Under the pieces are notes generated by a model. It saw nothing but the letters and a program-made list of their open reading frames with translations, was not told the DNA's origin and did no database searches. A DNA stretch of 5,711 bases, taken from positions 1 to 5,711 of IMG/VR virus record IMGVR_UViG_3300045988_001120, one strand, 5' to 3'. This DNA is from a virus. The position numbers and the translations under genes are program-made. How positions within the stretch are numbered: the first letter of the stretch is position 1; each line of letters opens with the position of its first letter. Positions 2,188-5,024 of this stretch are shown here, piece after piece.

Positions 2188-3024
2188 ATGGGAGCATTAT
2201 CAGGATTCTTAACAGCACTAAACGTAGCGGGAAACGTAGCAAATACGGTCGGAACAATCGCCGGAGCAGCACAAAACGTTGCTGGAGCTTTTGGCGGATG
2301 GGGTCAGACAGGCAGCAGCCAAAGCCAAGGCGGAAGTACAAGCCAAGGCGGTGGACATTCCGAAAGCGGAAGTCAAGCGGGAACAAACATTCAACAGGTA
2401 AACGACTGGCTTAAGCAAGCATACGCATACCAAGGCCAAGAAGCTGCCATGCAAGGTAAATACAACAGTCAAAGCATGTTAAAGCAGATGGGTTACAACA
2501 CCTTACAAGCAATCATGCAAGGCGTATATAACCACATTGAAAACAGCGTAGCAATGAACTACAACAGTGCAGAAGCACTAGCCAACCGTGAATGGCAAGA
2601 ACACATGTCAAGCACTGCATACCAGCGTGCAGTTGAAGACATGAGAAAAGCGGGACTGAATCCAATCTTAGCTTTTTCAAACGGCGGAGCGAGCACGCCG
2701 GGCGGTAGCGCGGGAACAATCAGCGGTGCGAGCATGGGACTAGCAAGCAGCAGCGCACTAGGAGTAAGCCGAAGCGGTGGATTTGTACCAAACGCATACG
2801 AAAGCAATAGCTGGAGTCAAAGTGACTGGTACAATGCTGCACAGAGCTGGCAGCAGATGCTTAGCAGCACACACATGACACCTTACGGACTGCAAAATGC
2901 ATTAACAGAAATCGCAAGCGATACAGGCAAAGCAATTGACAAAAACGTACCACAAGGAAGCAAAAAACACACTAGCAAATCCGGAGTAACACACGGAGGA
3001 GGAGGAGGTAACATCAAAAAATGA
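2188..3024 (+). CDS. VP2: Minor capsid / DNA pilot protein VP2-like, 278 aa
   Basis: The gene follows VP1 directly. It has a hydrophobic Gly/Ala-rich N-terminus (MGALSGFLTALNVAGNVANTVGTIAGAAQNVAGAFGGWG) and a Gly/Ser/Gln low-complexity segment. The central block STAYQRAVEDMRKAGLNPILAF is the conserved block I recall for gokushovirus VP2. Its stop overlaps the VP4 start (ATGA). Confidence 0.85.
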   Translation: MGALSGFLTALNVAGNVANTVGTIAGAAQNVAGAFGGWGQTGSSQSQGGSTSQGGGHSESGSQAGTNIQQVNDWLKQAYAYQGQEAAMQGKYNSQSMLKQMGYNTLQAIMQGVYNHIENSVAMNYNSAEALANREWQEHMSSTAYQRAVEDMRKAGLNPILAFSNGGASTPGGSAGTISGASMGLASSSALGVSRSGGFVPNAYESNSWSQSDWYNAAQSWQQMLSSTHMTPYGLQNALTEIASDTGKAIDKNVPQGSKKHTSKSGVTHGGGGGNIKK

Positions 3025-4040
3025 GTTGTTACAAGCCATTAATAAGGCTGTACAACCCGGAAAACAAAGATATAAGCGGGCGGGTGTATTCACTTGCCCG
3101 CTTTTCTGAAATATCGGGAAAGCAGCTCAAATATGAAGATTTAATGTTTAGAAAAGATGTCATGTTGATACCATGCGGACAGTGTATCGGATGCAGAATC
3201 AGACAAAGAGAGGACTGGACAACACGAATAGAATTAGAAGCACGAGACTATCCAAAAGAAGAAGTTTGGTTTATAACATTAACCTATAACGATGATCATG
3301 TGCCAGGCATGATAGTAAACACAGGCGAAATCACGCGAAAAGTACAATACGTCTGGAGACCGGGAGAGAAGCGCCCAGAAAGCGTCCAAACTTTGCTATA
3401 TACTGACGTTCAAAAGTTCTTAAAACGCCTCAGAAAGGCTTATAGGGGCAAATTACGCTATTTTGTGGCGGGAGAATACGGAGAACAGACAGCTCGGCCA
3501 CATTACCATATGATACTGTATGGATGGAGACCAACAGACCTAGAGCACCTATACAAGATACAGCACAACGGATATTTCACAAGTAAATGGTTAGAAAACC
3601 TGTGGGGCATGGGGCAAATACAGATAGCACAAGCAGCACCAGCAACATATAGATATGTTGCGGGATACGTTACAAAAAAAATGTACGAAATTGACGGCCA
3701 GAAAGCAAACGTATACTACGAACTAGGACAACAAAAACCTTTTGCGTGTATGAGTCTTAAACCAGGCCTAGGAGATAACTATTACCAAGAACACAAAGCA
3801 GAAATCTGGAGACAAGGCTACATCCAATGCACAAACGGCAAACAAGCACAAATTCCACGCTATTATGAAAAAATGATGGAAGCTGAAAACGCACAAAGAT
3901 TGTGGAGAATTAAACAGAACAGACAAGCAGCAGCCATAGCAGAAAACCGGCTTAAGTATGAAAATGCAGACTTTGAAGAGCAATGCAAGACAAAAGAAAG
4001 AGTGATAAAGAAGCAGATGAAGAAGAGGGGGACACTTTAA
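3021..4040 (+). CDS. VP4: Replication initiation protein VP4 (HUH rolling-circle endonuclease, phiX174 gpA-like), 339 aa
   Basis: Three RCR motifs are present. Motif 1 is FITLTY (3270-3287). Motif 2, the HUH motif, is PHYHMILY (HYH at 3501-3509). Motif 3 is YVAGYVTKK, with two Tyr spaced Y-x3-Y (3654-3668). An N-terminal PCGQCIGCR cysteine cluster is typical of gokushovirus VP4. A (GGA)4GG run at 2995-3008 provides the SD. Confidence 0.93.
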   Translation: MSCYKPLIRLYNPENKDISGRVYSLARFSEISGKQLKYEDLMFRKDVMLIPCGQCIGCRIRQREDWTTRIELEARDYPKEEVWFITLTYNDDHVPGMIVNTGEITRKVQYVWRPGEKRPESVQTLLYTDVQKFLKRLRKAYRGKLRYFVAGEYGEQTARPHYHMILYGWRPTDLEHLYKIQHNGYFTSKWLENLWGMGQIQIAQAAPATYRYVAGYVTKKMYEIDGQKANVYYELGQQKPFACMSLKPGLGDNYYQEHKAEIWRQGYIQCTNGKQAQIPRYYEKMMEAENAQRLWRIKQNRQAAAIAENRLKYENADFEEQCKTKERVIKKQMKKRGTL

Positions 4041-4050
4041 CGGTGTCACC

Positions 4051-4084
4051 TAGCCCAGTACCTATCAAGTAAGGTACTGGGCTA
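4051..4084 (+). terminator. Perfect 13-bp stem-loop (TAGCCCAGTACCT / AGGTACTGGGCTA, 8-nt loop) 11 nt after the VP4 stop; terminator-like or ssDNA origin hairpin
   Basis: 4051-4063 pairs perfectly with 4072-4084 around the loop atcaagta. The downstream sequence ttgtcattt is only weakly T-rich. Confidence 0.5.
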
Positions 4085-4143: not shown

Positions 4144-4187
4144 CGCGCGTGCGCACGCGCGCGAAGCGCGCACGCGCGCACGCGCGG
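4144..4187. repeat. GC-rich alternating purine/pyrimidine palindrome (imperfect ~20-bp hairpin/cruciform; three copies of GCGCACGCGCG)
   Basis: 4144-4163 (20 nt) and 4166-4186 (21 nt) each alternate Y/R perfectly and are separated by AA. Pairing i+j=8330 gives 4144-4154 with 4176-4186 (11 bp), then 2 bp and 5 bp segments separated by single mismatches. GCGCACGCGCG starts at 4151, 4168 and 4176. Only 6 of 44 bases are A/T, in an otherwise moderate-GC genome. Confidence 0.85.
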
Positions 4188-4200
4188 CTCTTCAGCGCTA

Positions 4201-4230
4201 TTGTTCGCAAGCTCACAAGCGCTGTATAAT
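4201..4230 (+). promoter_or_regulatory. Candidate sigma70-type promoter: TTGTTC (4201-4206), 18-nt spacer, TATAAT (4225-4230)
   Basis: The -10 hexamer is perfect and is preceded by TG. The -35 matches only 3/6 and the spacer is 18 nt. It would transcribe into the iteron region. Confidence 0.35.
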
Positions 4231-4270
4231 ATATAACTTGTTGTAGGAGTAGTAGTAGAGATAGTGGAAA

Positions 4271-4438
4271 AGTTGAAAAGTACTAAAATTTAACGCTAAA
4301 GCGTAAATAAAAAGCAAAAAATGCTGTTGAAAGTTTTGTTGAAAACTTGTTGAATTGTTGAAAGTCCGTCAAAATGACGAAAACCTTTGTGCAACATTTT
4401 GTTGAAAACCTGTTGAAAGTGTTGAAAGTGTTGAAAAC
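4271..4438 (+). repeat. Iteron array: 9 direct copies of GTTGAA, 8 of them as TGTTGAA(A/T), in two clusters of four
   Basis: TGTTGAA starts at 4325, 4337, 4348, 4356 and at 4400, 4411, 4420, 4429. AGTTGAA is at 4271 and a degenerate TGTTGTA at 4239. There are two subtypes, TGTTGAAAGT and TGTTGAAAAC. TTTTGTTGAAAAC is exact at 4334 and 4397. All copies are on the same strand. Confidence 0.9.
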
Positions 4439-4581
4439 GCGCACAGCGCTTACAATGAATGGATTAGCCGAGTTCCGCATACGCTCCACACGGCAAGGCG
4501 CTGAAGCGCTTTCAAAACAAAGGAGCAAAACCGGGTTACAAGAGAAGGTTACAATTTTATTACAAAACAGCAAAATCCCGG

Positions 4582-4610
4582 TTGACAATCGGGAGCTTTT
4601 ATTTTATAAT
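4582..4610 (+). promoter_or_regulatory. Perfect consensus sigma70 promoter TTGACA-17 nt-TATAAT upstream of the peptidase gene
   Basis: TTGACA is at 4582-4587 and TATAAT at 4605-4610, with a spacer of exactly 17 nt. The predicted start near 4617 lies just before the SD AAAGGGGG (4617-4624) and ATG 4632. Confidence 0.75.
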
Positions 4611-4631
4611 ACAGACAAAGGGGGCGCAAAA

Positions 4632-5024
4632 ATGCTTAAATGTTATATCATGAACACAGACGGAAATGTACAACTTGCAAGACACTTCAAAGTAAAAGAA
4701 TTTGCATGTAAAGACGGAAGTCCGATAGTATTCATAGATGACTACTTGTATAACGTTCTGGACATCCTCCGACATAAACTAGGGAAACCAGTCATTATCA
4801 CCAGCGGATACAGAACACCAGAGTGGAACAAAAAATGTAACGGAGCAAAATACAGCTACCACATGCGCGGTATGGCAGCAGATATCCGAGTCGATGGCAT
4901 GAGCACAAAAGAACTTGCCAACAAACTGAATGAAATCGTCCCGGATGAATGCGGCATTATCGTATACAACACTTGGGTGCATTTTGATGTGCGAAACGGG
5001 AAAAAATACAGAAAGGGGGTATAA
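4632..5024 (+). CDS. Zinc D-Ala-D-Ala carboxypeptidase / M15-family (M15_3-like) peptidoglycan peptidase, putative endolysin, 130 aa
   Basis: The zinc-ligand pattern is SYHMRGMAAD (H at 4860-4862, D at 4881-4883) plus WVHFD (H at 4980-4982). The KEFACKDG and TSGYR blocks are typical of small phage M15 peptidases. ATG 4632 is preceded by AAAGGGGG at 7-nt spacing. The track ORF starts at 4374, but that extension only translates the iteron array. Confidence 0.87.
   Translation: MLKCYIMNTDGNVQLARHFKVKEFACKDGSPIVFIDDYLYNVLDILRHKLGKPVIITSGYRTPEWNKKCNGAKYSYHMRGMAADIRVDGMSTKELANKLNEIVPDECGIIVYNTWVHFDVRNGKKYRKGV

Follow-up and report, generated by a model that had tools for sequence, protein, structure and literature searches.

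Bacterial DnaA-trios have the consensus 3′-GAT-5′, that is 5′-TAG-3′, and adjoin the DnaA box nearest the unwinding site, and the published search rule for a basal unwinding system (BUS) combines a box with no more than two mismatches, a spacer of at most 16 bp that includes a gap of about 4 bp, and at least three trios (PMC8287927). The trio strand of B. subtilis reads TAGTAGAAGTAATAGTAG, as deduced from the DRE 5′-CTACTATTACTTCTACTA-3′, and the boxes lie on the 5′ side of the DRE. Among replicons other than chromosomes, the theta origins of P1 (oriR), pSC101, RK2 and F contain DnaA boxes, and IHF is an enhancer factor at the f1 origin. To our knowledge, no plasmid or phage theta origin carries trios in the full BUS grammar and none belongs to a microvirus, nor do we know of rolling-circle phages that need DnaA. 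Few gut phages are as abundant as the microviruses, but hosts are known for hardly any of them and the origins of gokushoviruses are unmapped. The literature searched contained no paper linking Microviridae to DnaA boxes, Gokushovirinae and DnaA being mentioned together only in unrelated work on Rep evolution, and the enterogokushovirus paper does not discuss origins (PMC7062461).

The locus described here is a cassette of 213 nt (4225-4437, + strand) in a gokushovirus genome, resembling an oriC-type DnaA module and conserved, inverted or relocated as a unit among relatives. Its TGTTGAA repeats are probably binding sites for the DnaA of the host and the cassette as a whole is probably a miniature copy or mimic of the host BUS, which suggests a coupling of phage replication to the initiator of the host.

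Genome context and the TGTTGAA array

The window, by which we mean the whole 5,711-nt stretch of DNA analysed, is a circular gokushovirus genome of 5656 nt with a 55-nt terminal redundancy. All of its genes lie on the + strand, comprising VP1 (476-2149), VP2 (2188-3024), VP4 (3021-4040), an M15-type peptidase with its ATG at 4632, and several small ORFs. The VP4 stop at 4040 and the peptidase ATG at 4632 are separated by a 591-nt gap without a conserved ORF, in agreement with the large non-coding region described in a reading made from the sequence alone. This non-coding region is better kept than the genes, with 92% identity to KX513868 compared to 83.5% genome-wide. Both of the elements said to flank the array were present: a GC-rich hairpin of alternating purines and pyrimidines (4144-4186, −26.5 kcal/mol), which flanks the cassette and stays unmoved when the cassette inverts, and a consensus promoter (4582-4610, 12 of 12 positions), which has the cassette upstream of it. 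A scan for promoter and terminator consensus sequences found nothing within the array, a search of the full window sequence against Rfam at E ≤ 1 gave two chance-level matches only, both outside the region, and a search of a plasmid database with the cassette returned one chance match.

Eight exact copies of TGTTGAA lie on the + strand of the gap in two clusters, with starts at 4325, 4337, 4348 and 4356 (cluster 1, 4325-4364; spacings of 12, 11 and 8 nt) and at 4400, 4411, 4420 and 4429 (cluster 2, 4400-4437; spacings of 11, 9 and 9 nt). Elsewhere in the window there is just one more copy, at 2390 on the − strand. The expected number for the window is 1.16, and the observed total of nine was reached in none of 200 dinucleotide shuffles. 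Degenerate copies occur at 4239 (TGTTGTA) and 4271 (AGTTGAA), and AACTTGTTG is found exactly at 4235 and again at 4344, so that the exact repeats, their spacings, their two subtypes, the degenerate copies and the AACTTGTTG duplicate are all as the sequence-only reading had described them. A 30-nt direct repeat (4325-4354 and 4388-4417, 83%) suggests that the two clusters arose by duplication, and at the head of cluster 2 there is a decayed fifth box, TGTGCAA (4388-4394, + strand). Between the clusters lies a small palindrome, CGTCAAAATGACG (4367-4379; −3.7 kcal/mol, z = −1.5), which is kept as GTCATTATGAC in the inverted type of the cassette described below.

Since cluster 2 is crossed by a + strand ORF (4374-5024) in frame with the peptidase, the repeats could in principle encode an N-terminal repeat domain of that protein. 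This ORF is peculiar to the window genome. In 76 relatives, the peptidase ATG is preceded by an open frame of mostly 2-30 codons, with a maximum of 74, which stops short of the array in all 76 genomes, and a translated repeat domain was rejected on this basis. Together with an array of Spo0A operator boxes and a protein-sponge RNA, both of which are taken up below, this belongs to a group of explanations that we consider scarcely credible.

Resemblance to bacterial unwinding systems and host origins

From 5′ to 3′ on the + strand, the cassette is made up of an AT-rich stretch, AACTTGTTG, five trios, a 4-nt gap, two tandem boxes and the two four-box clusters, and its first part reads TATAATATATAA-CTTGTTG-TAG GAG TAG TAG TAG-AGAT-AGTGGAAAA-GTTGAAAAG. 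The AT-rich stretch, TATAATATATAA (4225-4236, + strand), consists of A/T at 12 of 12 positions and is placed like a DNA-unwinding element, beyond the trios as seen from the boxes; AT-rich DNA is similarly located in four host oriC loci (L107, L124, L156 and L129). At 12 nt it is short, the B. subtilis counterpart being a 27-mer. The five trios, TAG GAG TAG TAG TAG (4244-4258, + strand), exceed the minimum of three. The same run adjoins the boxes in host oriCs, strand and order being as in the origins at L107 and L124, and the order and strand of the B. subtilis elements are likewise those of the cassette. Between the trios and the proximal box lies the gap AGAT (4259-4262, + strand), whose 4 nt equal the published average of 4 bp and fall well inside the 16-bp limit. 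This gap is G-rich (GGGAG, GGGGG, AGGC) in many relatives and hosts.

The trios are followed by the tandem boxes AGTGGAAAA (4263-4271) and AGTTGAAAA (4271-4279), both on the + strand, which are 8 nt apart from start to start and thus overlap by one base, the corresponding pair in the host loci examined being 9 nt apart. The first of these, AGTGGAAAA, has two mismatches to TGTGGATAA and is within two mismatches of TTATCCACA, the TGTGGAAAA of relatives has one mismatch, and the trio-adjacent box is TGTTGAA itself in four candidate host origins. In simulated genomes of the same composition, the full combination of box, spacer, trios and AT-rich flank appeared in 2 of 5000. The cassette thus formally matches a chromosomal BUS in its layout, and this points to a like function. 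A chromosomal origin beside dnaA it is not, as it is situated between VP4 and the peptidase gene on a phage genome.

The search for hosts consisted of a scan for three closely spaced TGTTGAA in one genome per bacterial and archaeal species, in which the candidate hosts are metagenome-assembled genomes. Many of the matches listed are tandem repeats with a regular period; also among the matches listed are irregular, phage-like arrays in several Oscillospiraceae, Ruminococcus and Clostridiales contigs. No microvirus genes were found in the array-bearing bacterial contigs. In at least four loci (L156, L107, L124 and L129) the array fills the dnaA-dnaN intergenic region, with yidC, rnpA and recF as the usual neighbours, and the identities of DnaA, DnaN and RnpA (RNase P protein) were confirmed by Pfam with E-values of 1e-23 to 1e-70. 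Each of these four dnaA-dnaN regions has between 8 and 20 TGTTGAA, interspersed with TGTGGAAAA and the canonical, textbook TGTGGATAA, and in L156 all 20 copies lie in the 863-nt intergenic region, compared to none in the remaining 3 kb. The variant boxes of the host origins have the form TGTTGAAA(A/C/G). Beside the array, the host origins carry (T)AGTAGTAGTAG, followed by GGGGG or GGG and a tandem pair of boxes, and the opposite side of the run is AT-rich.

When the profiles of 69 host boxes and 652 phage boxes were compared, the frequency of T at position 4 was 86% in the hosts and 90% in the phages and that of G was 14% and 10%, respectively, position 8 was A in 88% and 91%, and spacings of 9 and 11 nt dominated host and phage arrays alike. 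In the phage alignment, T and G alternate at orthologous positions, indicating that TGTTGAA and the near-canonical TGTGGAA are interchangeable there. It was deduced, solely from its position in their origins, that TGTTGAAAA is a DnaA box in the candidate hosts. This sequence is two mismatches from the textbook box, and its usually invariant CACA is changed to AACA. The four host DnaA proteins have RDHSTIVY in the DNA-reading helix, the counterpart being RDHTTV(L/I)H in the structures from E. coli, B. subtilis and Aquifex and RDHTTVMY in M. tuberculosis, a difference that is compatible with a shifted box preference of the host DnaA and gives only a hint of it.

The same profiles bear on the idea, raised as speculative in the sequence-only reading, that the repeats are Spo0A boxes coupling the phage to sporulation, as in phi29. 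TGTTGAA is one mismatch from the 0A-box TGTCGAA, TGACGAA at 4374-4380 fits TGNCGAA, and the candidate hosts are said to include spore-formers. The idea fails at the defining base, as position 4 is T or G and not one C was found there among 652 phage and 69 host boxes.

Conservation, inversion and relocation of the cassette

Eighty IMG/VR relatives were picked by similarity of VP4, and the cassette is present in 78 of them. One relative without it, L002, was set aside as a cassette-less 8.8-kb contig in which about 2.5 kb of unrelated reverse-strand ORFs replace the region. The core (4225-4442) was also found in 44 GenBank records of gokushoviruses or Microviridae from the faeces of humans, pigs, monkeys, dogs, mink and raccoons. 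The check proposed with the sequence-only reading, conservation in relatives, thus came out in favour of the repeats, which are kept in 78 of 80 relatives and, in 76 relatives, are not translated. Selection falls on the putatively functional parts of the cassette. Over the 78 distinct relatives, conservation was 97% for the eight box cores (94% for cluster 1 and 96% for cluster 2 as a whole), 93.6% for the trios, 93% for the tandem boxes and 88% for 4225-4234 of the AT-rich stretch, compared to 82% for the long spacer and 47% for the gap, which is the least conserved feature. The most conserved element is AACTTGTTG, at 99.9%. Between the forward and inverted types, matching positions number 38 of 40 in cluster 1, 37 of 38 in cluster 2 and 9 of 9 in AACTTGTTG, compared to 27 of 45 in the spacer.

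This pattern can be set against the possibility that the TGTTGAA repeats are iterons for the phage's own Rep, VP4, as in CRESS-DNA viruses, geminiviruses and iteron plasmids. The repeats are on the same strand about one helical turn apart, they lie beside a Rep-like motif, and their first five bases, TGTTG, also occur inside AACTTGTTG, all of which would fit such iterons. However, the boxes remain unchanged while VP4 identity drops from 96% to 40%, including in the genomes at 40-46%, and this lack of co-variation argues against Rep-specific iterons. Furthermore, identical arrays, with the same motif, neighbours and spacing, fill bacterial dnaA-dnaN origins that have no VP4; of 80 outgroup gokushoviruses with a homologous Rep, 63 have a sense-strand hairpin with an ACTTGAT loop, none has a trio run beside it and canonical DnaA boxes form no consistent clusters; TAG trios play no part in iteron systems of Rep proteins; AACTTGTTG lies outside a hairpin; and the hairpins at 4051-4084 and 4144-4186 are not flanked by iterons. 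We therefore regard VP4 iterons as very improbable. According to the sequence-only reading the array could be a docking platform of origin type with VP4 as its binder; the platform is upheld by the BUS layout and the dnaA-dnaN match, and VP4 as the binder is not.

Six of the 80 IMG/VR relatives (L014, L029, L053, L054, L067 and L068) and MG945447 have the equivalent of about 4221-4438 inverted in place between two flanks of unchanged orientation, and the breakpoints lie at about 4220-4227 and 4437-4438 by BLAST. Identity between inverted and forward alleles is just 76-79%, indicating that the inversion is old, and an active phase-variable switch was rejected for this reason. The flanking inverted repeats are just 9-12 nt long, and no recombinase gene was seen among the ORFs of the window. 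In KT264784 the cassette is located between VP2 and VP4 on the opposite strand, and KT264799 has only the first third of it, a bare BUS of two boxes and trios. TGTTGAA arrays occur in 113 of the viral contigs examined, and of these contigs 27 of 32 from microviruses and 0 of 81 others show the trio-gap-box signature.

With both orientations and differing positions on record, the cassette is unlikely to serve as the operator of one fixed promoter, to be transcribed from a promoter in its flanks or to be a signal on one particular single strand. An autonomous element that acts in cis on double-stranded DNA, for which inversion and relocation would be tolerated, is more likely. Two further suggestions of the sequence-only reading are hard to reconcile with these rearrangements. 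One is an operator array for a regulator of the downstream genes. The other is a protein-titrating RNA made from the upstream promoter, for which the array also has no promoter-like site by consensus scan and no Rfam match, and relative to the flanking promoters the cassette flips.

DnaA could also bind the cassette without unwinding it, either because the many copies of the replicative form (RF) titrate DnaA and so halt initiation in the host, in the manner of datA, or because DnaA controls the nearby late promoter. DnaA is a known transcription factor and datA a known titration locus, each genome copy has at least 10 boxes, and the cassette is upstream of the consensus promoter at 4582-4610. 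A regulatory role is difficult to maintain given that the distance to the promoter ranges from 146 to 691 nt, that the orientation flips and that one genome has the cassette in another gap. As for a sink, the trios and the AT-rich stretch are selected as strongly as the boxes, and KT264799, the minimal version, retains two boxes only, together with trios, both of which speak against a pure sink. Taken as a whole, binding without unwinding appears improbable.

A Rep-like motif at the trio edge and possible modes of initiation

The element AACTTGTTG (4235-4243, + strand) is specific to the phages, as it was absent from the host oriCs examined, and it is identical also in the relocated and minimal cassettes. 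It directly adjoins the trios on the same strand as these, between them and the AT-rich stretch, and resembles a Rep nick site with a putative cut at G4240/T4241. It matches the phiX174 origin CAACTTG/ATA (rep_origin annotated at 4306), the loop CTACTTGTTGTAAG of a perfect 10-bp hairpin in phiMH2K, and the loop TCTACTTGAT of a 14-bp hairpin in Chp2. At AACTTGTTG itself, folding gave no hairpin (−1.3 kcal/mol, z = +0.85). A XerCD/dif-like site, considered from TATAATATATAAC, was dropped after a poor by-eye alignment to E. coli dif.

A canonical origin-type gokushovirus hairpin is present elsewhere in the gap, with a 13-bp stem and the loop TACTTGAT (4051-4084, − strand; −13.7 kcal/mol, z = −6.6). 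Hairpins of this type are antisense to the genes in about 85 of 91 genomes of the clade. In 63 of the 80 outgroup gokushoviruses, the hairpin with a (T)TACTTGAT(GTA) loop is on the gene-sense strand, in none of the 80 does a TAG-trio run adjoin the origin hairpin, and the 80 show no consistent clusters of canonical TTATCCACA. As the sequence-only reading held, the arrangement in the window falls outside the textbook picture of microviruses. The motif ACTTG(A/T)T thus occurs twice in the window, on the sense strand without a hairpin (4236-4245) and on the antisense strand in the 4051-4084 hairpin, the two Rep-like sites being on opposite strands in genomes with a forward cassette and on the same strand in those with an inverted one. 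We infer that ACTTG(A/T)TGTA is the Rep site of gokushoviruses, the literature searched giving no mapping of it.

Considering the position of AACTTGTTG at the trio edge and its ACTTG match, melting of the cassette would expose a putative nick site to VP4. In the mechanism that we propose, DnaA-ATP would occupy the boxes on the double-stranded replicative form, oligomerise onto the trio strand and melt the adjoining AT-rich and AACTTGTTG DNA. The melted AACTTGTTG might then be offered as single-stranded DNA to the HUH nuclease VP4, whose cut at G4240/T4241 could start rolling-circle synthesis. Melting by DnaA would in this way replace the hairpin extrusion that other gokushoviruses appear to use, and the outer clusters would raise the local concentration of DnaA, as the upstream boxes of B. 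subtilis do. On a broader scale, we tentatively propose that a widespread clade of gokushoviruses of the mammalian gut may have captured or evolved the DnaA unwinding module of its Oscillospiraceae/Ruminococcaceae hosts and fused it to its Rep nick motif, so that initiation, be it rolling-circle or theta, would be gated by the initiator of the host and thereby by the growth state of the host.

The second of these modes, in which the cassette is a true theta-type origin, would have DnaA open the DNA and the host loaders DnaD, DnaB and DnaI load the replicative helicase, allowing the RF to be copied as an oriC minichromosome is and, for example, to persist as an episome while cells divide, whereas VP4 would cut the hairpin at 4051-4084 to produce virions. 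The unwinding grammar is full, and the complement of the trios, CTACTACTA, contains TnnT repeats as recognised by B. subtilis DnaD. Neither orientation nor position is fixed for the cassette, the genome has a canonical origin hairpin apart from it, and gokushoviruses can persist as circular DNA without integration (PMC7062461). Theta initiation does not account, however, for the Rep-like AACTTGTTG being conserved above all other elements and firmly joined to the trios in each cassette, even the minimal one, and the genome is without partition or copy-control genes. On balance, we think a theta-type origin, the main rival, rather unlikely, and continue with the reading of the cassette as a DnaA unwinding module joined to a Rep-like site.

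If this reading is true, it would provide a concrete and testable origin for a large clade of gut phages, and the first rolling-circle ssDNA phage found described that couples its replication to DnaA through a complete module of boxes, trios and DNA-unwinding element. Phage replication would be linked to the cell-cycle and nutritional state of the host, which could explain persistence without integration. The box variant would serve as a new signal for host prediction, TGTTGAA having matched at least four dnaA-dnaN origins of Oscillospiraceae, Ruminococcus and Clostridiales, and the BUS would be able to serve as a portable, invertible cassette, which bears on the evolution of origins. The cassette also raises the question of which strand these phages package. 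If VP4 cuts the ACTTG of the cassette, sister phages would package opposite strands, making some of them the first antisense-packaging microviruses. Strand composition was uninformative as a clue to the packaged strand, as the sense strand of phiMH2K is equally A-rich.

Compared to known systems, the cassette is alike in elements, order, orientation and distances to the bacterial BUS (B. subtilis incC; Richardson 2016, 2019; Pelliciari 2021), and upstream accessory box clusters are common to both. It differs in that a BUS adjoins dnaA on a chromosome, whereas the cassette occupies about 213 nt of a 5.7-kb rolling-circle ssDNA phage. The phage cassette alone has the Rep-like AACTTGTTG between the trios and the AT-rich stretch, its proximal boxes overlap at a spacing of 8 nt, and it can be inverted and relocated. 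With the origins of Microviridae, namely the 30-nt phiX174 origin CAACTTG/ATATTAATAAC and the TACTTGAT(GTA) hairpin of gokushoviruses, it shares the ACTTG core followed by (A/T)TGTA, but its motif is outside a hairpin loop and flanked instead by DnaA elements, and the canonical hairpin of the window is antisense, whereas 63 of the 80 outgroups have theirs on the sense strand. The iterons that Rep binds in CRESS-DNA viruses, geminiviruses and iteron plasmids are similarly short same-strand repeats at about helical-turn spacing beside a nick site; those are bound by and co-vary with their own Rep, whereas the repeats of the window are shared with host origins and invariant with respect to Rep. 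The closest parallel in strategy is with the theta origins that contain DnaA boxes and with the IHF enhancer of f1, in which a mobile replicon likewise enlists a DNA-binding protein of the host, next to the site of its own initiator, for help in opening the origin, although P1 oriR, pSC101, RK2 and F have one to a few boxes together with iterons for their own initiator.

Relocated, minimal and unusual forms of the cassette

The oriC-like cassette, which lies at 4225-4437 on the plus strand of the window, is not fixed in position among gokushoviruses. In the GenBank record KT264784.1, a complete cassette is found at 2583-2790 on the opposite strand, in the VP2-VP4 gap and not, as in the window, downstream of VP4. 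The cassette has therefore relocated in one piece on at least one occasion. A minimal cassette was found at about 3530-3590 of a second record, KT264799.1, consisting of an AT-rich stretch, ACTTGTTG, five TAG trios, GGGAG and two boxes, with the outer box clusters absent. In the window, an ATG-initiated ORF (4374-5024) in frame with the peptidase, whose own ATG is at 4632, adds 86 codons upstream and crosses box cluster 2 (4400-4437). This frame is open only in the genome of the window, probably by chance.

In the 8.8-kb IMG/VR contig L002 (6286-8675 and 1-1137), the cassette region is replaced by ~ 2.5 kb carrying three reverse-strand ORFs of 211, 479, and 120 aa. This contig could have been assembled chimerically, or it could come from a microvirus that carries a large insertion. 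Contigs L022 and L017 (10.7 and 10.9 kb, respectively) are each about two genome lengths, with a forward-type and an inverted-type cassette present together on L022; this may represent two co-assembled strains or a heterodimer.

Hairpins around the cassette

At 4144-4186 of the window, purines and pyrimidines alternate along a GC-rich tract of 43 nt, which folds into a hairpin of -26.5 kcal/mol and would tend to form Z-DNA or a cruciform. This hairpin is kept beside the cassette in most relatives, remains in place when the cassette is inverted, and is missing from KT264799. Downstream of the cassette, a hairpin at 4467-4494 (GCCGAGT/ACACGGC) shows compensatory changes at three of its seven stem positions among relatives, while an internal mismatch is constant across them. 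Another small hairpin comes next, at 4498-4509. The 4467-4494 hairpin may be an RNA element or may act as a signal for single-strand priming.

Directly 3′ of the VP4 stop codon, a perfect hairpin with a 13-bp stem (4051-4084) carries the loop TACTTGAT, read on the antisense strand. Of 80 other gokushoviruses, 63 have the same type of hairpin on the sense strand. This difference raises the possibility that, in the clade of the window, the strand that is nicked or packaged is the one antisense to the genes.

A further trio-gap-box array and DnaA of the candidate hosts

An array of the same type as the cassette, with trios, gap and boxes, was also observed at 2400-2800 of L198, a contig binned as Mesoaciditoga sp. 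There it adjoins a 539-aa ORF, a putative groEL judging from its first residues, and not dnaA. The contig may be mis-binned; alternatively, the array may be a second locus of DnaA boxes, or the origin of a plasmid or phage.

In the DnaA C-termini of all four candidate-host contigs with TGTTGAA arrays in their dnaA-dnaN origins (L156, L124, L107, and L129), RDHSTIVY replaces RDHTTV(L/I)H in the DNA-reading helix, and the proline aligned to E. coli Pro423 is absent. These two differences could underlie the TGTTGAA variant of the box.
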